From Syntrophales bacterium (GTDB lineage Bacteria; Desulfobacterota; Syntrophia; Syntrophales; Fen-1087): 64,000 nt of DNA. Under the pieces are notes generated by a model. That model saw nothing but the letters and a program-made list of their open reading frames with translations. It was not told the DNA's origin and searched no databases. Positions 14,597 through 25,238 of this stretch are shown piece after piece. The position numbers and the translations under genes were made by a program. The DNA lies in NCBI GenBank assembly GCA_034678725.1, contig JAXDBM010000078.1, positions 5,730 through 69,729 on the forward strand. The letters are read 5' to 3'. Every line of letters starts with the position of its first letter. Position 1 is the stretch's first letter.

Positions 14597-14681
14597 GAGT
14601 TAATTTGTTGAAAATTGTTCAAAAATAATTATATAGGATGACCCTGGCTATTCGGAAAAATCCCTCATGCGAGGCCCGTTG

Positions 14682-16358
14682 ATGCTGAAAGAAAAGACGG
14701 CGACCCGGCTGCGATACCTGCTGCTGTCGCGGGTCGCCATCGTCACGCTGCTGCTGGGTATCGCCATTTTCATGAAGGTCAAGGGCGAGGAGTATCTGCC
14801 CGAGATATCGCTTCGGTCTCTTTCCTGGCTCATTATCACATCCTACATCCTGTCGCTCCTCTATTTTCTTCTCCCCCGCCTGGTACGGAGCATTCAGACA
14901 AATCTCTATATCCAGGCCATCGGCGACGTCCTGCTGGTTACAGGCCTGGTTTATGCGACGGGCGGCATCATCAGCATCTATCCCGTTTTTTACACACTGG
15001 TAATCATCTACTCCGTGTTGTTCCTGGGCAGGCGGGGCGGGCTGATCACCGCCTCCGCGTGCAGCATCGGCTACGGCCTCCTTCTCGATCTGGAGTACTA
15101 CCGGGTTCTGGCCCCGCCCTATTCAACCATGATCCGGGATTACCCGTTCACGGCAAGCTATGTTTTCTCGAAGATCATCACTTATATCGTTTCCTTCTAC
15201 CTGATCGCCTTCCTCGCCATTTTTGTCGTGGAACAGGAAAAGCGGACGAGAACGCTGCTGCGGGAAAAGGAAACCGCGTTCGATCAGCTCGATGTGCTGC
15301 ACCGGAGCATCATCGAGTCCGTCGACACGGGCATCATGACGATCAATCTTCGGGGCCGGATCAAATCCTTCAACCGGGCGGCGCAAGAGATCACCGGCTA
15401 TTCCTTCGACGAAGTCGAAAACAAATATATCGCCGATTTGTTCCCGGCGTACGGACAATTCGTTGCGAAGATTCAGGCGGGGAGCAACCCGGAGCCGGAG
15501 CGAAGCCGGGTGGAAATTCAGATCGAAAGCAGGGAGAAAAAGCCGCTCATTCTGGGCTGCTCCCTTTCCTTTCTGAGCGACGCAGCGGGGAAGCGGATCG
15601 GCAACATCATTGTTTTCCAGGATTTGACGGCCGTCAAGAAAATGGAGGCCAGTGTCGAAAAGAACAGGCGGCTCGCCTTCATCGGCGAAATGGCGGCGGG
15701 CCTCGCCCACGAGATGAGAAACCCCCTGGCGTCGATCGGCGGCTCCATTCAGGTTCTGAACAAAAGCCTCACCCTGAGTCCGGGCGATGAACGCCTCATG
15801 CAGATCATCCTGAGGGGCAAGGATCAGCTTGAGAGCTTCATGCGTGATTTTCTTCTCCTCTCCAGGCCCTCGCCGGGAGTGCCGGAAGCCATCGGAATCG
15901 CGGAGATGATCGAGGAGGTGCTCGAGTCGGTCCGTTACCTGCCGGACTGGCGGGACCGCATCGTGGTCGAGAAGTCTTTCCGGGATCCGGTGCCGCGCAT
16001 TCACGCGAACAAAACGGAAATCCGGCAGCTGATGTGGAACCTCCTTTTGAACGCGGTTCAATCCATGCCGGAAGGCGGCCATCTGCGCGTCGAAGCCGGA
16101 TCGGGCATGGCGGAGGAAGCCTCCGTGACCTGCCTCGAGATCCGGGTCGGGGACAGCGGCCCGGGAATCGCGGAAAAGGATGCGCCCCGGATTTTCGAGC
16201 CCTTTTTTACAACCCGCGAAAAGGGCACGGGAATGGGGCTTGCGATTGTCAACCGGATTGTGGAGAGACATCACGGTAAAATAAAAGTTGACAGCCGGGC
16301 AGGCGAAGGGACGACCTTTACGGTATGGCTCCCCTGCCTGAGGGAAGCGGAGAGGTGA
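14682..16358 (+). CDS. pilS: PilS-like membrane sensor histidine kinase with a PAS domain
   Basis: Multi-TM N-terminus, PAS (SFNRAAQEITG), AHEMRNPL H-box, NLLLNA, DSGPG, FEPFFTT, GTGMGL; adjacent to a sigma54 regulator. Alternative start 14667. Confidence 0.8.
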   Translation: MLKEKTATRLRYLLLSRVAIVTLLLGIAIFMKVKGEEYLPEISLRSLSWLIITSYILSLLYFLLPRLVRSIQTNLYIQAIGDVLLVTGLVYATGGIISIYPVFYTLVIIYSVLFLGRRGGLITASACSIGYGLLLDLEYYRVLAPPYSTMIRDYPFTASYVFSKIITYIVSFYLIAFLAIFVVEQEKRTRTLLREKETAFDQLDVLHRSIIESVDTGIMTINLRGRIKSFNRAAQEITGYSFDEVENKYIADLFPAYGQFVAKIQAGSNPEPERSRVEIQIESREKKPLILGCSLSFLSDAAGKRIGNIIVFQDLTAVKKMEASVEKNRRLAFIGEMAAGLAHEMRNPLASIGGSIQVLNKSLTLSPGDERLMQIILRGKDQLESFMRDFLLLSRPSPGVPEAIGIAEMIEEVLESVRYLPDWRDRIVVEKSFRDPVPRIHANKTEIRQLMWNLLLNAVQSMPEGGHLRVEAGSGMAEEASVTCLEIRVGDSGPGIAEKDAPRIFEPFFTTREKGTGMGLAIVNRIVERHHGKIKVDSRAGEGTTFTVWLPCLREAER

Positions 16359-16360
16359 AA

Positions 16361-17734
16361 ATGGCCAGGATCCTTGTAGTGGACGACGACAAGGGGATGA
16401 GAGAGTTTCTTGAGATTATGCTGGGCAGGGAAGGGTATGATGTCACCGCAACTTTCGACGGGGAAAAGGCCCTCGGCCTTTGCAGGAAAGTTCCCTTTGA
16501 TCTGATCCTGACGGACCTGAAAATGCCCCGGATGGACGGCATCGAGTTCATGAAACGGGCGAAGGATGTCTGCCCCGAAGCCATGATCATCCTGATGACC
16601 GCTTATGCTTCAGGCGAAACGGCCGTTTCCGCCATGAAAGAGGGCGCCTATGATTATATCGAAAAGGATTTCGACATCGAAGACCTGGCGCGTCTGATCC
16701 GGGAGGCGCTGAACAAAAAGGGCGTCAAGAAAAGCGACGCCGAGTTCATGAAGGAACTGGAAGAATCGGTGTCCTTCGGCGGAATGATCGGAAAAAGCAG
16801 GGAAATGCTCAAGGTCTACGCGACCATCAAGAAAATCGCGGGTACCACGGCCAACATTCTGATCCTCGGTGAAAGCGGCACCGGCAAGGAACTGGTGGCC
16901 CGGGCCATCCATGAAAACAGCCCGCGCAACGGGCAGCCCTTTGTCGTCATCAACTGCGGGGGCATACCGGAATCACTCCTCGAATCGGAATTCTTCGGAT
17001 ACATGAAAGGCTCCTTCACGGGGGCCCACACCGACAAGCCCGGTCTGTTCGAGGTGGCGAGCGGCGGCACGATATTCCTGGATGAAATCGGAGATCTTCC
17101 CTCGATCCTGCAGGTAAAGCTTTTGCGCGTCGTGCAGGAAAAAACCTTCCGGCGCATCGGGGGCACGGAGGATATTCGGGTCAATGTCCGGATCATCTCG
17201 GCGACCAATCAGGATCTTTTTACGAAAGTGAGAGAAAACACCTTTCGGGAGGATCTCTACTACCGTCTCAACGTCATTCCGATTCACCTTCCGCCCCTGC
17301 GGGAAAGAAGGGAGGACATTCCCGTCCTGGCAAAGCACTTTATCGAGAAATACTCCCGGGAGTTCGGAAAGGAGATCCGGAACATGTCCGTTTACGCCCT
17401 GGAACTCCTGATGGATTATCCCTTTCCGGGAAATATCCGCGAACTGGCCAACATCATCGAGCGCAGCGTCGCGCTCGAATCCTCCAATATCATTCTTCCG
17501 GAAAACCTCGTCCTGTCGGACAGCCGGGACCCGGCCTTCTCCGTCAGCGATTACCGGTTTCCCGGGGAGGGCGTCGATCTGAACGAGGAGCTGGCCCATA
17601 TCGAGCGGCAATGGATTCGCAGCGCACTCGAAAAAGCGAAAGGGTCCAAGACAAAAGCGGCGGAACTGCTGCACGTCACCGTTGATTCCCTGCGTTACCG
17701 GATTGAAAAGCTGGAGATGGAATCCGGCCCGTAA
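16361..17734 (+). CDS. pilR: PilR-like sigma54-dependent response regulator (REC-AAA+-HTH)
   Basis: VVDDD, TDLKMP, GESGTGKE, GSFTGA, FLDEIG, FREDLYYRLNV, FPGNIREL. Confidence 0.82.
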   Translation: MARILVVDDDKGMREFLEIMLGREGYDVTATFDGEKALGLCRKVPFDLILTDLKMPRMDGIEFMKRAKDVCPEAMIILMTAYASGETAVSAMKEGAYDYIEKDFDIEDLARLIREALNKKGVKKSDAEFMKELEESVSFGGMIGKSREMLKVYATIKKIAGTTANILILGESGTGKELVARAIHENSPRNGQPFVVINCGGIPESLLESEFFGYMKGSFTGAHTDKPGLFEVASGGTIFLDEIGDLPSILQVKLLRVVQEKTFRRIGGTEDIRVNVRIISATNQDLFTKVRENTFREDLYYRLNVIPIHLPPLRERREDIPVLAKHFIEKYSREFGKEIRNMSVYALELLMDYPFPGNIRELANIIERSVALESSNIILPENLVLSDSRDPAFSVSDYRFPGEGVDLNEELAHIERQWIRSALEKAKGSKTKAAELLHVTVDSLRYRIEKLEMESGP

Positions 17735-17742
17735 AATATTTC

Positions 17743-17774
17743 TTGACAACCCCGGCGCTTTGACTCTATAGGAT
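17743..17774 (+). promoter_or_regulatory. sigma70-type promoter of the Phe leader/ABC operon
   Basis: TTGACA at 17743-17748, followed after 18 nt by TATAGGAT. Confidence 0.55.
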
Positions 17775-17792
17775 GACAGAAGGTAAATTAAA

Positions 17793-17882
17793 ATGAAAAG
17801 TCTCGATGTCATGGATCGCCGGTCAGTCCGCTTTTTCGCTTTCTTCAGCTTTTTTAGCGAGGTCTGCCTGCCGCGCTCATGA
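17793..17882 (+). CDS. Phenylalanine-rich attenuator leader peptide (MKSLDVMDRRSVRFFAFFSFFSEVCLPRS)
   Basis: AAGGT RBS at 17780-17784; 6 Phe codons in 8 positions (17832-17855); the stop lies just 3' of the antiterminator 5' arm. Below the ORF-track cutoff. Confidence 0.85.
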   Translation: MKSLDVMDRRSVRFFAFFSFFSEVCLPRS

Positions 17883-17915
17883 CATGAATTGAGCCATGAC
17901 GCCGCGGGCAGACCT
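17860..17915 (+). promoter_or_regulatory. Antiterminator helix of the attenuator (2:3)
   Basis: AGGTCTGCC (17860-68) is the exact complement of GGCAGACCT (17907-15), plus CGCG (17872-75) pairing with CGCG (17903-06); it overlaps the terminator 5' arm. Confidence 0.8.
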
Positions 17916-17939
17916 TTTCGGGCTGCCCGCGGCTTTTTT
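17901..17939 (+). terminator. Attenuator terminator 1 (3:4)
   Basis: Perfect 11-bp stem GCCGCGGGCAG/CTGCCCGCGGC followed by T6. Confidence 0.9.
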
Positions 17940-17942
17940 ATG

Positions 17943-17975
17943 AAGGCCGTGGAATCCGATCCATGGCTTTTTTTT
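17943..17975 (+). terminator. Second tandem terminator (5:6)
   Basis: GCCGTGGA/TCCATGGC stem (one G-U) with a 6-nt loop, followed by T8. Confidence 0.7.
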
Positions 17976-18000
17976 ATCTTTTTTCGAGGAGGACAGGGCG

Positions 18001-19209
18001 ATGACGAAAATGATGAGATGGATGAACGCGATGGGCATGCTGGCCGCGCTGGCCTTTTTCGGCCCGGCCCCTGCTGCGGATGCCGCGGCCATCAAAGTCG
18101 GGGCGGCAATCAACATGACCGGCCCGGCCTCCACCTGGGGCCAGTATCATGCCCGGGGTCAGCAGGATTATTTCCGCTACGTCAACGAGGTCAAGGGCGG
18201 CGTCGCCGGCCGGAAGATCGAGATGATTCTGGTCGACACGGGATACAAGGTCCCGGAAGCCGTCGCGGCCGTGAGGAAGTTTGCCGTGCAGGACCGGGTG
18301 GACATGATCGCCACCTGGGGCGCCGGGGAGGGGCTGGCGGCGAAACCCATCATCCAGAGCTACCGGATTCCCACAATCAATTACTCCACGAGCTGGGAAA
18401 TTCTGGAACCGCCCGTAGATTACATGTATCTCCCCTTCGGCAGCTACCGCATGGATTGCTACGCGGTGATCGATTACATCCGGACCATCCACAAGGGAAA
18501 GGAAGCGCCCAAAATCGGACTGCTGACCTACAACAACGCCTACGGCCGCTCCATTCACCAGCCGACCCGCGATTACGCGGCCAAACAGAAGGTACAGATT
18601 GTCGCAATCGAAGAGTTCCCCCCGAAGACGGTGGACCTGACTACGGAACTGCTGCGGCTCAGGCAGAAGGGCGCTGAATACGTCTTCATGCAGATGCTGC
18701 CCGCCACCATTATCACGACTTTCAAGAGCGCCGACCGGATCGGCTATGCGCCGCAATTCTTCGGGACATGGACCTCCACGGACCCGGACTTTTTCAAGCT
18801 CGGAAAGGGCCTGATCCGGGACCGGCTGAACATGCAGTTCCCCGGCGGTCTGCCCTCGGACAACACGAAGGGAATTGCGCTCATGAAGGAGCTTTGGAAG
18901 CGCTACAAGACGGTTGACCGGTTCGATGCGGCCTACTGGGAGGGCGTCGTCGTCGGCATGATCATGGAACGGGCCTTTGTCCGGGCGCAGGAATCCTTCA
19001 AGCAGGTGAACCGGGAGACGATCAACAAAGCCATGGAGTCGTTCCGGAATGAGGATTTCGGAGGCCTCGTGCCGAACGTCACCTACAGCAGCAAGGACCA
19101 CGGGGCGTCCTTCAAGGCCAGAATGGTCCGGGTGCGTGAGGACGGCTCCCTGGTCCCGCTGACCAACTTCTACACGCCCGGAAAAGAGAAGATCAAACTG
19201 ACAAAGTGA
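18001..19209 (+). CDS. LivK/LivJ-family ABC transporter substrate-binding protein
   Basis: Signal peptide; IKVGAAINMTGPAS, GGVAGRKIE, DTGYKVPEA; GGAGG RBS. Confidence 0.92.
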   Translation: MTKMMRWMNAMGMLAALAFFGPAPAADAAAIKVGAAINMTGPASTWGQYHARGQQDYFRYVNEVKGGVAGRKIEMILVDTGYKVPEAVAAVRKFAVQDRVDMIATWGAGEGLAAKPIIQSYRIPTINYSTSWEILEPPVDYMYLPFGSYRMDCYAVIDYIRTIHKGKEAPKIGLLTYNNAYGRSIHQPTRDYAAKQKVQIVAIEEFPPKTVDLTTELLRLRQKGAEYVFMQMLPATIITTFKSADRIGYAPQFFGTWTSTDPDFFKLGKGLIRDRLNMQFPGGLPSDNTKGIALMKELWKRYKTVDRFDAAYWEGVVVGMIMERAFVRAQESFKQVNRETINKAMESFRNEDFGGLVPNVTYSSKDHGASFKARMVRVREDGSLVPLTNFYTPGKEKIKLTK

Positions 19210-19222
19210 GACGGAAAATCCG

Positions 19223-20050
19223 ATGAAGTCACAGCGCAGCAGGCCGGGCATCTTCAGCGCGCGGAGTCGGGAAGATGCCCGGGCCGAACTGGACATTTCG
19301 AAGCTGTCCCTGCATTTCGGCGGCGTCCGGGCGCTGCACGACATCGATCTGGCCGTGCGCACCGGTGAGCTGGTCGCGGTGATCGGTCCGAACGGCGCGG
19401 GCAAGACCAGCCTGCTGAACTGCATGACCGGTTTCTACTGGCCGCAGCAGGGCAGCATCCGTTTCAACGGCCGGGACATCACCCATCTGCCGTCCCACGA
19501 GCTGGTGCGGATCGGCATCGGGCGGACCTTTCAGAACATCGAGCTTTTTCCGGGCATGACGGTGCTGTCGAACATGCTGCTGGCGAGGCACATCCACTGC
19601 CGCTGCGGCCTGGGCGCCGCGGCGCTCTTTGCATCCTCCGCCCGGAAAGAGGAGATCCGGCACCGGCTCGTCCTGGAAGAGGTGATCGATTTTCTGGAGA
19701 TGCAGGCGATCCGCAAGAAAACGGTCGGATCGCTTCCCTACGGCCTGATGAAACGGGTCGAACTCGGACGCGCCCTGGCGCTGGAGCCGAAGCTCCTCGT
19801 CCTCGACGAGCCCTTTGCCGGCATGAACCTCGAAGAAAAGGAGGACATGGTCCGGTTTCTCATCGAGCTCAACGAGGCCTGGGGCCAGACCATGATCCTG
19901 GTGGAGCATGACATGTCCATTGTCATGAGCATCTCCCAGCGGATCATGGTCCTGAATTTCGGCGAGAAGCTGGCGGAGGGAACGCCCGAAGAAGTGCGGA
20001 ACCACCCGGAGGTGATCAAGGCCTACCTGGGTGACGCGGAATCCCTTTGA
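19223..20050 (+). CDS. LivG-type ABC ATP-binding protein
   Basis: FGGVRAL, GPNGAGKT, RTFQN, LPYG, LDEP, HPEVIKAYLG. Confidence 0.93.
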   Translation: MKSQRSRPGIFSARSREDARAELDISKLSLHFGGVRALHDIDLAVRTGELVAVIGPNGAGKTSLLNCMTGFYWPQQGSIRFNGRDITHLPSHELVRIGIGRTFQNIELFPGMTVLSNMLLARHIHCRCGLGAAALFASSARKEEIRHRLVLEEVIDFLEMQAIRKKTVGSLPYGLMKRVELGRALALEPKLLVLDEPFAGMNLEEKEDMVRFLIELNEAWGQTMILVEHDMSIVMSISQRIMVLNFGEKLAEGTPEEVRNHPEVIKAYLGDAESL

Positions 20051-20061
20051 AGAGGGCAGCG

Positions 20062-21966
20062 ATGACGGCGAATCCGGCAGAAAAAACACTTCCCCAGGTC
20101 CTGGCCCTGCAGGCCGAGCGCCTGGGCGCCGCGACGGCAATCCGCGAGAAGGCCCTCGGCATCTGGCAGCGATACTCCTGGGCGGACTATTTCCGCTACG
20201 TGAGGCATGTGGCCGCCGGCCTGATGTCACTCGGGCTGAAGCGCTGCGAACATGTCGGCCTCATCCTGAACAACCATCCGGAGTGGCTCTTCAGTGAACT
20301 GGGGGCCCAGTCTCTGGGCGCCGTGACGCTGAATCTGTTCACCTCCTCGATCACTGACGAGCTGTGCCTGGCCCTCAACCGGATTCAGGCGGCCTTTGTC
20401 TTCGTCCAGGACCAGGAACAGGTCGACAAGCTCCTGGACGCCCGCGACAGGCTCGCGCATGTCCGCCGCGTGATCTACATCGACCCCACCGGAATGCGGA
20501 CCTACGGGAGCGAGCCCTGGCTGATCGGATTCAGCGAGCTGGTCCGAATGGGAGAGGCGCTCGAACGGGAACACCCGGATCGCGTCCTGCAGGAGATTCA
20601 TAAGGGCGGCCGGGGCGACACCGCCCTCATGATCCTCACTTCCGGAACGACCGGGCTGCCCAAACTCGCCATGCTATCGCACCGGAACCTGACAGCCATC
20701 GCCGAGAGCTGGGTCGAGGCCATGGCCATTCAAGAGGGCGAAAACTGGATCTCCATGTCGCCGCCCGCCTGGATCGTGGACCAGATGTGGGGTGTCGGGG
20801 TCGCCCTGGTCGGCGGAATGACGATGAACTTTCCCGAAACTCCGGAGACCGTCACGGAGGATTTCCGTGAAATCGGTCCGTCCCTGCTCATCACCGCCTC
20901 CCGGTTCTGGGAGGACCTCGCTTCCCGGATCATGGTGAAGATGTCCGATGTGGGGATGGTCAAGCGGAAAATGTTCGGCCTCGCCGAGCGGATCGGCCGC
21001 AGGGTCGCAGAAAAGGAAACCCGGGGAGAAGCCGTCCCTTCCTCCCTGAAAGCCCTCCACCGGCTCGCTTCTCTGACGGTTTACCGGCCGCTGCTCGACC
21101 GGATCGGCTGCCTGAAGCTGCGCAGCGCATTCACCGGCGGCCATCCCATCAGCCCGGATGTGATCGGCTTTTTCAGAACCATCGGACTCAATCTCAAGCA
21201 GTGTTACGGTCTGACCGAAGCCGGCGGCATTTTTCAGATCCAGCCGGACGATCAGGTGAAGCTGGAGACCGTGGGCAAGCCCCTGCCGGGGACCCTCGTC
21301 CGGCTTTCGGAAGACCAGGAGGTCCTGGTGCGCAGCGACGCCGTGTTCGCCGGCTATTATCAGGACTTCAAGTCGACGGAGGCCGCATTCGCCGACGGCT
21401 GGCTGCGAACGGGCGACGCCGGCTATCTGGACCGGGACGGCCATCTGCTGATCATCGGGCGCAAGGAGGAAATTATCCGCAACAAGAGCGGGGAGGCCTT
21501 TTCACCGGACTTCATCGAAACCCGCCTGAAGTTCAGCCCCTACATCAAGGAGGCAGTGGTTTTCGGCGAGGGGCGCCCCTTCCTCACGCTGATGGTCAAC
21601 ATCGATTTCGGAAACGTCGGCGTCTGGGCGGAGGAGCGGATGATCCCTTATACGACCTACATGGACCTGTCCCAGCAACCGGCCGTGGAAGAGCTGATTC
21701 TGGGCGAGATTCAGCGGATCAACGCGCAACTGCCGGACATCATGAAAATCCGGAAGTTCTTCCTCCTCTACAAGCTTCTGGACGCCGACGACGAGGAGTT
21801 GACCCGCACCGGCAAGGTGAGGCGGCGCTTTGTCTACGGCCTTTACATCAAGCTGATCGAGGCCATGTACCGGGACCAGTGGGAGGTCGAGGTCAAGGCG
21901 AAGGTCCAGTACCGGGACGGACAGGTCGGCAAGGTGGAAACCAAGGTGAAAATCATACCGGTTTAA
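20062..21966 (+). CDS. AMP-dependent acyl-CoA synthetase (long-chain fatty acid-CoA ligase family)
   Basis: TSGTTGLPK, YGLTE, TVGKP, WLRTGD, IIGRKEE, ELTRTGKVRR. Confidence 0.92.
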   Translation: MTANPAEKTLPQVLALQAERLGAATAIREKALGIWQRYSWADYFRYVRHVAAGLMSLGLKRCEHVGLILNNHPEWLFSELGAQSLGAVTLNLFTSSITDELCLALNRIQAAFVFVQDQEQVDKLLDARDRLAHVRRVIYIDPTGMRTYGSEPWLIGFSELVRMGEALEREHPDRVLQEIHKGGRGDTALMILTSGTTGLPKLAMLSHRNLTAIAESWVEAMAIQEGENWISMSPPAWIVDQMWGVGVALVGGMTMNFPETPETVTEDFREIGPSLLITASRFWEDLASRIMVKMSDVGMVKRKMFGLAERIGRRVAEKETRGEAVPSSLKALHRLASLTVYRPLLDRIGCLKLRSAFTGGHPISPDVIGFFRTIGLNLKQCYGLTEAGGIFQIQPDDQVKLETVGKPLPGTLVRLSEDQEVLVRSDAVFAGYYQDFKSTEAAFADGWLRTGDAGYLDRDGHLLIIGRKEEIIRNKSGEAFSPDFIETRLKFSPYIKEAVVFGEGRPFLTLMVNIDFGNVGVWAEERMIPYTTYMDLSQQPAVEELILGEIQRINAQLPDIMKIRKFFLLYKLLDADDEELTRTGKVRRRFVYGLYIKLIEAMYRDQWEVEVKAKVQYRDGQVGKVETKVKIIPV

Positions 21967-21979
21967 GGAGATTTTTCGA

Positions 21980-22858
21980 ATGGACTTTTTCGTTCAACTG
22001 CTCGTCAACGGCATCAGCATCGGTCTGCTCTACGGCCTGTCCGCGATGGGCTTCGTCATGATCTTCAAATCGTCCAGCGTCCTGAATTTCGCCCACGGGG
22101 AACTCCTCGCCTTCGGGGCTTTTCTGTTCCTGGCCATGGTCTCCTGGGCCGGACTGCCCCTGCCGGTGGCCTTTCTGGTAACGCTGGCCGGCTGTTTCTC
22201 GCTGGGGTTCCTCGTGGAGCGCGTCTTCCTGCGCCCCCTCATCGGCGAACCCCTGATTTTCGTGATCATGCTGACCGTCGGCCTGGCCTCGATGTTCAAG
22301 GGGCTGCTCCTGCTGGTGTGGGGCGGCAACCTCCAGACCTATCCGGACTTTCTGCCGGAGGCGCTCGGCATCCGCTGGGGCGCCATCCAGGTTCCGCCCG
22401 TCTACGTGGCCGCGCTGTTCATCGGGATGATCTTTCTGTGCCTGTTCGGCCTGTTCTTCAAATACTCCTCCCAAGGCATCTACATGCGCTCGGTGGCGGA
22501 CAACCAGAAAGCCGCCCTTTCCCTGGGGGTCCACGTCAAACGGGTCTTCGCGCTCTCCTGGGCCATCGCCGCACTGGTGGCCGGAATGAGCGGCATCGTT
22601 CTGGGCATCATCAATGGCATCAACGTGCACGACCTGAGCGCCATCGGCCTCAAGGTCTTCCCTGTGGTGATCCTGGGCGGGCTGGATTCCATTGGCGGAG
22701 CCATCATCGGAGGCATTATCATCGGCCTGCTGGAGACCTTCACGGGCGGCTACCTGTCGCCATCACTCCGCGATGTGGTTCCCTACATCGTCCTGGTGCT
22801 GATTCTGCTGGTGAAACCCTACGGCCTCTTCGGCCTGAAAGAGATCGAGCGGGTGTGA
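21980..22858 (+). CDS. LivH-type ABC permease
   Basis: NGISIGLLYGL, VLNFAHG, SVADN..AALSLG, LGGLDSI. Confidence 0.93.
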   Translation: MDFFVQLLVNGISIGLLYGLSAMGFVMIFKSSSVLNFAHGELLAFGAFLFLAMVSWAGLPLPVAFLVTLAGCFSLGFLVERVFLRPLIGEPLIFVIMLTVGLASMFKGLLLLVWGGNLQTYPDFLPEALGIRWGAIQVPPVYVAALFIGMIFLCLFGLFFKYSSQGIYMRSVADNQKAALSLGVHVKRVFALSWAIAALVAGMSGIVLGIINGINVHDLSAIGLKVFPVVILGGLDSIGGAIIGGIIIGLLETFTGGYLSPSLRDVVPYIVLVLILLVKPYGLFGLKEIERV

Positions 22859-22860
22859 AC

Positions 22861-23931
22861 ATGCGAAAACCGAGATTCCACCCTTGCGGAAATTACCGGG
22901 AAGACTACCGGGAAGAGCTGACGGTCTTCGAGACGGACTTCGGCCGCCTCTGGCTGGGCATCGGCCTTGCCTTCCTGTTTCTGGTTCTGCCCTGGGTCGT
23001 GACACCCTACATGGTCTACGTTCTGAACATGATCGGCATTGCCGCGATTGCCGCGATCGGCCTGAACATTCTGATCGGATACACCGGACAGATCTCTCTC
23101 GGTCACGGCGCCTTTTTCGGCGTCGGCGCCTACGCGGCGGGAATCCTGGCCACTTCGGCGGATCTGCCCTTCGTCCTGGTCGTGCCGGCCGCCGCCGCCG
23201 TGACGTCTCTGGTGGGGATGATCTTCGGGATTCCCTCAGTCCGCCTGAAGGGCCTCTACCTGACCATTGCCACCCTGGCCGGACAGTTCATCGTGGAGTA
23301 CATCCTGCTGCACTGGGAAGGTTTGACAAAGGGCACGATGGGGATCACGCTGCCGAAGGCCTCCCTGCTCGGATGGGAGATGGGCGGCGACCGGGGCTTC
23401 TTCTTCGTCATCTTCATCTGCCTGATCGGAATGACCTGGCTTGCGGTCAACCTCATCCGCACGAAGTACGGCAGGGCTTTCATCGCGATCCGGGACAACG
23501 ACCGGGCGGCCGAGGGAATGGGCATCCCCATCTTCCGCTACAAGCTGCTTTCCTTTGCCATCAGCTCCTTCTACGCCGGATTTGCCGGCGCCCTCTGGGC
23601 GTATTACATGGTGAGCATCACCACGGAGCCTTTCAACCTCGGCCTTTCCGTCGAATACATCGCCATGGTGATCATCGGCGGAATGGGAAATATCTCCGGC
23701 TCGATCTTCGGCGCCGTCTTCATCACCGGCCTGAACGAACTGCTGCGCTGGGCGACGGACGCGCTGATGAACATGGGGGTGTTCACAAGCACCGGCCTGA
23801 ACATGGCGCCGCTTCGCGAATTCGCCTTCGGAGCCGCGATCGTGCTTTTCATTCTCTTCGAACCCCGGGGGCTGGCGGAGGTTTGGCGGATCGTCCGCTC
23901 GAGCTTCCGGCTCTGGCCTTTTTCATACTGA
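22861..23931 (+). CDS. LivM-type ABC permease
   Basis: GLNILIGYTGQISLGHG, GRAFIAIRDND.AA..MGI, YKLLSF. Confidence 0.93.
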   Translation: MRKPRFHPCGNYREDYREELTVFETDFGRLWLGIGLAFLFLVLPWVVTPYMVYVLNMIGIAAIAAIGLNILIGYTGQISLGHGAFFGVGAYAAGILATSADLPFVLVVPAAAAVTSLVGMIFGIPSVRLKGLYLTIATLAGQFIVEYILLHWEGLTKGTMGITLPKASLLGWEMGGDRGFFFVIFICLIGMTWLAVNLIRTKYGRAFIAIRDNDRAAEGMGIPIFRYKLLSFAISSFYAGFAGALWAYYMVSITTEPFNLGLSVEYIAMVIIGGMGNISGSIFGAVFITGLNELLRWATDALMNMGVFTSTGLNMAPLREFAFGAAIVLFILFEPRGLAEVWRIVRSSFRLWPFSY

Positions 23932-23943
23932 AGGAGTCTGGCG

Positions 23944-24744
23944 ATGCGGGATGTCCTGCTGCAGGTGAATAACATATCCGTCGTTTATTCCGACGTCATC
24001 CAGGTCCTCAAGGGGGTGTCCCTGGCGGTGGAAAGGAAACACATCGTTTCGCTGCTTGGCAGTAATGGCGCCGGCAAGACGACGACGCTGAAGGCCATTT
24101 CCGGACTGCTCAAACCTGAAAACGGCGAGGTGACGGACGGCTCGATCCTCCACAGCGGCAAACCCATCCACAACCAGCCTCCCGAGACCATCACCCGGCT
24201 GGGCATCATTCAGGTCCTCGAGGGCCGCCAGCCGTTCAAGTACCTGACCATCGAAGAGAACCTGAGGGTGGGGACGGCCACCCGCTGGGGCAAGGCCTAC
24301 AAGGAGGACCTGGAGCTGGTGTACGGATATTTTCCCGCCCTGCTGAAACGAAGGAAAGCGTTGGCCGGCTACTGCAGCGGCGGAGAGCTGCAGATGCTCG
24401 TGATCGGCCGTGCCCTGATGGCCCACCCGCAGCTTCTCCTGCTGGATGAGCCGTCGCTGGGTCTGGCGCCGCTGGTCGTCAGCGAAATCTTTCGGATCAT
24501 TCGGCGGATCAACGAAGAGCAGGGGACGACCATTGTCCTCGTCGAGCAGAACGCCCGCATGGCCCTTCAGATCGCCCACTACGGGTACGTGATGGAAAAC
24601 GGCAAGATCGTCATGGAGGGCCCGGCTGAAGACCTGGTTGAAAATCCCGATATCAAGGAATTCTACCTGGGCATGGCCGCCTCCGGCGCCGCAAAATCCT
24701 ACCGGGACGTCAAATCCTACCGGCGCCGCAAGCGCTGGCTGTGA
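23944..24744 (+). CDS. LivF-type ABC ATP-binding protein
   Basis: GSNGAGKTT, SGGELQM, LDEPSLGLAP, VEQNA. Confidence 0.93.
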   Translation: MRDVLLQVNNISVVYSDVIQVLKGVSLAVERKHIVSLLGSNGAGKTTTLKAISGLLKPENGEVTDGSILHSGKPIHNQPPETITRLGIIQVLEGRQPFKYLTIEENLRVGTATRWGKAYKEDLELVYGYFPALLKRRKALAGYCSGGELQMLVIGRALMAHPQLLLLDEPSLGLAPLVVSEIFRIIRRINEEQGTTIVLVEQNARMALQIAHYGYVMENGKIVMEGPAEDLVENPDIKEFYLGMAASGAAKSYRDVKSYRRRKRWL

Positions 24745-24891: not shown

Positions 24892-24908
24892 TTGGCACGT
24901 TTATTTCA
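24892..24908 (+). promoter_or_regulatory. Candidate sigma54 promoter with a non-canonical -12 element
   Basis: TTGGCACG-TTTA-TTTCA (GG-N10-TC instead of GC), preceded by an AT-rich tract with an IHF-like TATCAATATGATA. Confidence 0.35.
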
Positions 24909-24962: not shown

Positions 24963-25238
24963 ATGAAAAAGAATCTCGCAACCCTGGTGATGGCAGCGGC
25001 GGTGGTTTTGATCACGGCAGGTTTCAGCTTCGCGGAATATACTGCGGGCGGTGCGGACAACTTCCCTTATTTTCAGCTTGGGTGCCTGATCATCGGCGGG
25101 CTCATCATGATGTCCCTGAAATACAAGTACAACAAGATCTACACCAGCGAAGTCGTCGGCGCCTTCGCCCTCTACACACTCTACATCTCTCTGTTCACCT
25201 CGCCGGTGCTGGAAGCCGTGAAAAACTGGCTGAGCTGA
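24963..25238 (+). CDS. Small membrane protein (signal peptide + 2 TM), unknown function
   Basis: Strong AAAGGAGG RBS; cleavable-type signal peptide ending in SFA; own terminator downstream. Confidence 0.8.
   Translation: MKKNLATLVMAAAVVLITAGFSFAEYTAGGADNFPYFQLGCLIIGGLIMMSLKYKYNKIYTSEVVGAFALYTLYISLFTSPVLEAVKNWLS

Follow-up and report, generated by a model that had tools for sequence, protein, structure and literature searches.

The analysed window is a stretch of 64,000 nucleotides (positions 5,730-69,729, forward strand) of contig JAXDBM010000078.1 from the uncultured Syntrophales genome GCA_034678725.1. A leader element occupies the gap between an upstream two-component gene pair of the PilS/NtrC-like type (14667-17734) and a downstream six-gene operon (18001-24744). 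The features of the element and the genes of the operon, the latter assigned through Pfam and NCBIfam scans, are collected in Table 1. The gene for an AMP-binding, CoA-ligase-like protein (20047-21966) is embedded among the Liv-type transporter genes. An operon of this composition under a phenylalanine attenuator would fit a function in the uptake of Phe, or in the uptake of aryl acids for Phe salvage.

Table 1. Features of the leader element and its operon in the window, and paralogous leaders of the same genome (C15, C53 and C98: positions outside the window)
Feature	Position	Strand	Remarks
Leader promoter, sigma-70 type	17743-17772	+	TTGACA (17743-48), 18-nt spacer, TATAGG (17767-72); near consensus, read from the sequence
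Leader ORF, 29 codons	17793-17882	+	MKSLDVMDRRSVRFFAFFSFFSEVCLPRS*; stop codon TGA (17880-82); Shine-Dalgarno AAGG (17780-83)
Segment 2	17860-17871	+	AGGTCTGCCTGC; 5' strand of antiterminator 2:3 in MFE folds; inside the last leader-ORF codons
Segment 3	17901-17915	+	5' arm of terminator 1 (17901-11); 3' strand of 2:3 (17904-15)
Segment 4	17923-17939	+	3' arm of terminator 1 (17923-33) and T6 (17934-39); 5' strand of 4:5 (17927-36)
Segment 5	17943-17952	+	AAGGCCGTGG; 5' arm of terminator 2 and 3' strand of 4:5
Segment 6	17961-17975	+	CCATGGCTTT; 3' arm of terminator 2 (17961-70), overlapping T8 (17968-75)
Ribosome-binding site	17986-17992	+	GAGGAGG, ahead of the first regulated gene
First regulated gene	18001-19209	+	LivK-type substrate-binding protein
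Rest of operon	to 24744	+	in order: LivG, AMP-binding CoA-ligase-like protein, LivH, LivM, LivF
Trp/Tyr/Phe-rich leader (aro)	C15:24764-24932		before a DAHP-synthase-like gene
WWW leader	C15:33419-33563		before trpE
Second WWW (Trp) leader	C98:120-201		tandem terminators
Val/Ile leader	C53:19133-19283		before ilvB

The leader promoter is kept at the same place, in the form TTCTTGACA-N17-TATAAG, in the relatives L004-L010, L014 and L019; an automated promoter scan chose an overlapping, weaker candidate (17760-89). Within the leader ORF, six Phe codons fall inside 8 codons (17832-17855, FFAFFSFF), and the peptide is kept in the orthologs as FFxFFSFFS(E/G)VCLPRS* with synonymous variation between TTT and TTC. 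The element possesses the features of a ribosome-mediated attenuator: (i) a short ORF of the translated type with a start codon, a ribosome-binding site and a run of Phe codons; (ii) intrinsic terminators with covariation, terminator 1 (T1) and terminator 2 (T2), located downstream of the leader ORF and ahead of the structural gene; (iii) an antiterminator, helix 2:3, which has one strand in common with the terminator and reaches back into the end of the leader ORF, its segment 2 lying 9-20 nt upstream of the stop codon.

Segments 2 to 6 may pair with their neighbours in two alternative registers. T1 (helix 3:4) is formed from GCCGCGGGCAG and CTGCCCGCGGC and is followed by T6, whereas T2 (helix 5:6) is formed from AAGGCCGTGG and CCATGGCTTT and runs into T8. 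An automated terminator scan also calls T2 terminator-like. The T-run of T1 and the stem of T2 are separated by the three nucleotides ATG (17940-42). The remaining helix, 4:5, joins CCGCGGCTTT, i.e. the 3' arm of T1 with its first Ts, to the 5' arm of T2. An earlier note on this DNA had described both a T8-bearing hairpin 3 nt past T1 (17943-75) and the complementarity of 17927-36 to 17943-52 over 10 bp with two G-U pairs, and both descriptions are exact on direct reading of the sequence. The energies calculated with ViennaRNA for the window are -30.0 kcal/mol for T1, -17.1 kcal/mol for T2, -35.9 kcal/mol for 2:3 and -18.0 kcal/mol for the 4:5 hairpin. The last value becomes -22.3 kcal/mol with an extra outer helix, and RNAfold lengthens 4:5 to 11 bp. 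When segment 3 is unavailable, the ViennaRNA ensemble is divided 47:53 between 4:5 and 5:6.

This arrangement suggests a chain attenuator with one Phe-rich leader, in which 4:5 is probably the antiterminator of T2 and couples T2 to T1; the comparative sequence evidence given below supports such a reading with moderate confidence. The OFF state would consist of 3:4 and 5:6, and the ON state of 2:3 and 4:5. With Phe plentiful, the ribosome would come to the stop codon at 17880 and cover segment 2, so that segment 3 would pair with segment 4 as T1, and a polymerase reading past T1 would meet 5:6, namely T2. With Phe-tRNA scarce, the ribosome would stall in the early Phe codons, leaving segment 2 free to capture segment 3. 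The free segment 4 with its U-run would then capture segment 5 and the A-rich 5' flank of the latter once segment 5 has been made, and segment 6 would be left without a partner. As neither U-run would be preceded by a hairpin in the ON state, transcription would enter the transporter operon.

Equilibrium folds with ribosome masks switch between the same two sets of helices. Without a ribosome, or with a stall at the second or fourth Phe codon, the MFE structure of transcripts extending beyond 17955 contains 2:3 and 4:5, whereas a mask for a ribosome that has reached the last Phe codon or the stop codon yields 3:4 and 5:6. All four helices are present in the sequence, and 2:3, 3:4 and 5:6 covary. 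From these features termination at both T1 and T2, as well as control of the switch by the ribosome, is predicted. Two terminators may bring a benefit over one, including tighter repression. The MFE structure of the full leader also uses a long-range helix (17808-18 with 17958-68, 11 bp, one G-U) joining the start of the leader ORF to the loop and 3' arm of T2. This helix is probably due to chance, because on inspection it is already imperfect in L002 and L003, which belong to the same genus.

A covariance model built from 18 orthologs matches 332 of 339 Syntrophales genomes, representing 69 of 72 genera. In other Syntrophales families the region from the Phe codons to the T-run of T2 is 67-92% identical. 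In the alignment of 94 ortholog leaders, T1 is paired in 95% of cells with 36 double-change cells, and T2 in 92.1% with 41 double-change cells and double changes in 10/10 pairs; for neither helix are the observed double-change count and covariation score reached in any of 500 shuffles. Helix 2:3 is paired in 94.4% of cells in the 18 orthologs. The pairing of 4:5 amounts to 93.9% of cells (94 orthologs), compared with 33-53% in slid controls. The helix is near-invariant, with only 6 double-change cells, and its percentage of pairing is reached by 32 of 500 shuffles, so within the order the sequences point to strong conservation and thin covariation. The core of arm 5 has an entropy of 0.32 bits against 0.67 bits for arm 6, which also carries non-wobble changes, and at the variable position of arm 5 a C occurs only where arm 4 has a G (3/3 cases).

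Helix 4:5 is conserved, has a stability close to that of 5:6, and goes together with the presence of T2. Very weak versions (about -4 kcal/mol) are found only in L088 and L096, both of which have a degenerate T2. Across the orthologs the mean energies are -15.1 kcal/mol for 4:5 and -16.6 kcal/mol for T2, 5:6 being on average 1.45 kcal/mol more stable. The proposed model therefore needs kinetic trapping, in which 4:5 would take precedence over 5:6 during transcription.

Of 301 Desulfobacterota genomes sampled, about half (145, in 97 of 201 genera) are hit by the model. The phylum-level comparison covers 67 leaders, drawn from about 35 families that do not belong to Syntrophales. The genes downstream of these leaders, classified from N-terminal motifs only, are DAHP-synthase-like, aldolase/ADH-synthase-like and aminotransferase-like genes, trpE, ilvB and genes of binding proteins. 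The leaders occur in three architectures: (i) U-runs after both hairpins (43/67); (ii) a relay form in which 5:6 alone, and not 3:4, is followed by a U-run (16/67, from 7 families), as in L294 with CCCACGGCTGAAATAAAAGGCCGTGG...CACGGCCTTTTTT; (iii) T1 alone (about 6-8 leaders). The relay form is represented by L291, L294-L296, L299, L305, L315, L316, L318, L321, L326, L328, L329, L332, L335 and L355, and the single-terminator relatives include L323, L342, L346, L352 and L354. T2 has been lost in the lineages f16, f18, f32, f39 and f67, and is thus dispensable. Since both relay and single-terminator relatives occur, the U-run of the middle hairpin has evidently been gained or lost repeatedly. 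In the relay relatives 3:4 has no U-run, and for that reason the sensor can reach the only terminator, 5:6, solely via 4:5. Equilibrium folds of the relay relative L294 with ribosome masks are dominated by a long-range pairing of the 1:2 type.

In the 67 relatives the core of 4:5 is paired in 89.2% of cells, compared with 18-58% in slid controls. Its double-change cells number 32, where shuffles give 11.4, and none of 500 shuffles reaches the observed value. This covariation rests largely on one position across the four arms, which reads GCGC in 27 leaders and AUAU in 24, with few mixed patterns; as the state of this position tracks the paralog class, it represents few independent events. Helix 2:3 is paired in 89.7% of cells, with double changes at several pairs. 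The earlier note proposed that segment 4, once freed, pairs with segment 5 and thereby disables T2, so that one stalling input governs both terminators. This comparative evidence supports the proposal: 4:5 is kept throughout the order and the phylum, arm 5 varies less than arm 6, and the relay relatives need 4:5 to be regulated at all.

An alternative in which only the relay operates would accept the 4:5 chain but assume that 3:4 terminates inefficiently in vivo. In that case 5:6 would be the one working terminator of a plain his-type attenuator, and the U-run after 3:4 would be kept mainly for pairing with the A-rich flank of segment 5. The 16 relatives which have the same chain and no U-run after 3:4 indicate that such a form is viable, and the first Us after T1 (17934-36 in the 10-bp helix of the earlier note) belong to 4:5, which RNAfold lengthens to 11 bp. 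However, T1 possesses an 11-bp GC-rich stem of -30 kcal/mol with T6 directly behind it, as in a canonical strong terminator, and the U-run after T1 is near-invariant in the 94 orthologs. Moreover, the lineages with T1 and its U-run but no T2 show that T1 can be the sole terminator. Inefficient termination at 3:4 is considered quite unlikely.

The same genome carries at least four further leader-peptide attenuators (Table 1), each with the layout of T1 followed by T2, and together with the window element they form a paralogous family that has no Rfam entry. Since paralogous leaders preceded by other genes show the tandem design as well, service as the terminator of the upstream regulator operon has been ruled out as a general reason for T1 and T2. 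Part of the 4:5 complementarity, namely GGC with a U-run against an A-run with GCC, would be expected of any two canonical tandem terminators. On this ground T2 might be regarded as an unregulated back-up that lowers expression by a constant factor, the complementarity being a by-product of hairpin duplication and of the terminator format A-run/GCC...GGC/U-run. T1 and T2 indeed have the common motif GCCGYGG...CCRYGGC, the generic pairing GGCUUU/AAAGCC gives 6-7 bp free, and the thin covariation of 4:5 within Syntrophales agrees with such an origin. In a control in which 597 other terminators predicted in this genome donated the 5' arm, 1% reach the energy of 4:5 with 14-nt arms and 17% with longer arms. 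The latter value favours a by-product, but because the outcome shifts with arm length, this energy-only null is weak alone and has not been relied on.

Several observations argue against such a back-up. When the base pairs of the T2 stem are shuffled with the T2 hairpin kept, only 0.16% of 5000 variants reach the observed 4:5 duplex energy of -18.6 kcal/mol. Among the paralogous tandem leaders of 40 related genomes, 38 of 45 beat shuffles of this T2-preserving kind at p<=0.01 (median p 0.001), which is further evidence for coupling. In the aro leaders the loop bases of T2 (GGCGGC) lengthen the complementarity into the upper 3' arm or the loop of T1 (GCCGCC), an extension that serves neither terminator hairpin and that rescues the apparent counter-example L121 (4:5 of -17.3 kcal/mol). 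Evidence against the coupling comes from uncompensated core mismatches in 4:5, found in L132 and L136, where a weaker 4:5 of about -12 kcal/mol is kept, and in L329, with the pattern GCAU. With an unregulated T2, however, a stem of about -17 kcal/mol followed by U8 would stop most transcription even under induction, and the relay relatives could have no regulation at all. Arm 5, in addition, varies less than arm 6. The constant back-up is for these reasons judged improbable, and the coupled chain is retained as the preferred reading.

It is also conceivable that the tandem hairpins shape stable, terminated leader RNAs acting in trans, like rnTrpL of Sinorhizobium. Termination at T1 or at T2 would then give a shorter and a longer isoform, the latter containing 4:5 as a structural feature. 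Attenuator-derived sRNAs are known (PMC6614838), and segments 2 and 3 (GGTCTGCC/GGCAGACC) show unusually strong conservation between paralogous leaders. In Rfam the closest resemblance, which stays below threshold, is to ar7, an sRNA carrying two hairpins at its 3' end (31 bits, gathering score 60); the candidate has been rejected as a resemblance of the hairpin layout only. In opposition to a trans function, nothing points to a target, and the element is always located directly upstream of amino-acid-related operons, with leader codons matching the operon. A role in trans would in any case not exclude the cis switch, and as the main explanation it appears very improbable.

Control of T2 by a separate factor, independent of T1, whether a protein or RNA bound to the GCCGYGG hairpin or a second leader ORF, is hardly credible: the conserved hairpin might serve as a binding site and the ATG at 17940 opens a frame, LFFIFF, through the T-runs, but no candidate factor is linked to the locus, the ATG is neither kept in the orthologs nor preceded by a ribosome-binding site, and the frame, whose Phe codons are the T-runs read in frame, continues for 262 codons into the next gene.

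The coupled chain resembles, above all in its logic, the his operon attenuator (hisL) of E. coli and Salmonella, in which the stem-loops AB, CD and EF alternate with BC and DE (PMC10989985). In both cases a leader peptide triggers a series of neighbouring hairpins that exclude one another, and a middle hairpin passes the state of the upstream one on to the terminator. The relay relatives, e.g. L294 and L335, match this logic exactly, the last hairpin being the only terminator in all 16 of them. There are, however, differences. In the his attenuator only EF is followed by Us, whereas in the window (T6 and T8) and in 43 of the 67 relatives the middle hairpin 3:4 also has a U-run and thus the appearance of a terminator. 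The his attenuator has AB, whereas no AB-like 1:2 hairpin was found in the window. The window element is further distinguished by Phe regulatory codons and a transporter operon. The design is thus less unprecedented than the earlier note implied, being a hairpin chain of the his-operon type with an extra U-run.

A Phe-codon-rich leader peptide and a terminator/antiterminator switch are also characteristic of pheL-pheA and pheM-pheST (Rfam Phe_leader, RF01859). These have a single terminator and belong to Gammaproteobacteria, in contrast to the present element, which belongs to Desulfobacterota and precedes an ABC transporter and a CoA-ligase-like protein. The Rfam leader families, including Phe_leader, give no match for 17600-18100 even at E<=10, and 8 paralogous or related loci give no match at the gathering score.

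Two intrinsic terminators within one 5' leader are likewise found in tandem riboswitches and attenuators, where each terminator has its own sensor. In contrast, the window contains one leader ORF, the 3-nt gap before T2 holds no further sensor, its ATG at 17940 being non-conserved and without a ribosome-binding site, and T2 would rely on the 3' arm of T1 for its antiterminator. The rimP-leader of some Gammaproteobacteria contains two tandem terminators and a potential antiterminator (PMC2965389); it differs in having no leader peptide, no described coupling of the two hairpins and an unknown signal. The literature searched yielded no leader-peptide attenuator with two coupled terminators and nothing relevant on attenuation in Syntrophus or the delta-proteobacteria. 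The principle is the known his-type chain; the novelty lies in the U-run carried by the relay hairpin, in how widespread the family is and in its position ahead of a transporter operon.

If the coupled chain is correct, the element would be a natural case of one sensor controlling two serial terminators via a relay of alternative helices, and its relatives show how a relay hairpin of the his type and a terminator can interconvert. The leaders form a large attenuator superfamily, absent from Rfam and not found described in the literature searched. Judged from the genes that follow them, they appear to govern the synthesis of aromatic amino acids, tryptophan and branched-chain amino acids, as well as a probable Phe-related uptake system. 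To our knowledge, there is almost no regulatory information on the hosts, which are mostly uncultured syntrophs. Being compact, about 200 nt with a sigma-70-type promoter, the element could serve as a low-leak genetic switch.

A tentative and rather doubtful extension of the coupled chain is that the two terminators act as a two-checkpoint timer, through which the leader would sample ribosome stalling twice, about 40 nt apart. This suggestion is based on the near equality of 4:5 and 5:6 in energy and on the premise that 4:5 exists only while 2:3 holds segment 3. A ribosome resuming translation after the polymerase has passed T1 would strip 2:3; segment 3 would retake segment 4, segment 5 would be freed, and T2 would fire. 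If true, only transcripts with a ribosome still stalled would pass, giving a sharper, time-filtered response, which could also explain the U-run on the relay hairpin in most Desulfobacterota lineages.

Two minor observations concern the surroundings of the switch. The 23 nt at 17772-17795, containing the ribosome-binding site and start codon of the leader, have matches of about 91% identity at 1-4 other places in many related genomes (each with E of about 0.03-0.06), and may represent a common ribosome-binding-site context. No sigma-54 promoter was seen by eye in the leader, although a sigma-54 activator gene is located upstream (16325-17734). Beyond the operon, TGGCACG-N4-TTTCA (24893-24908) is similar to a sigma-54 promoter, its -12 element deviating at one base. 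An ORF for a small membrane protein (24964-25238) follows about 55 nt downstream, and the promoter-like sequence could be a target of that activator.
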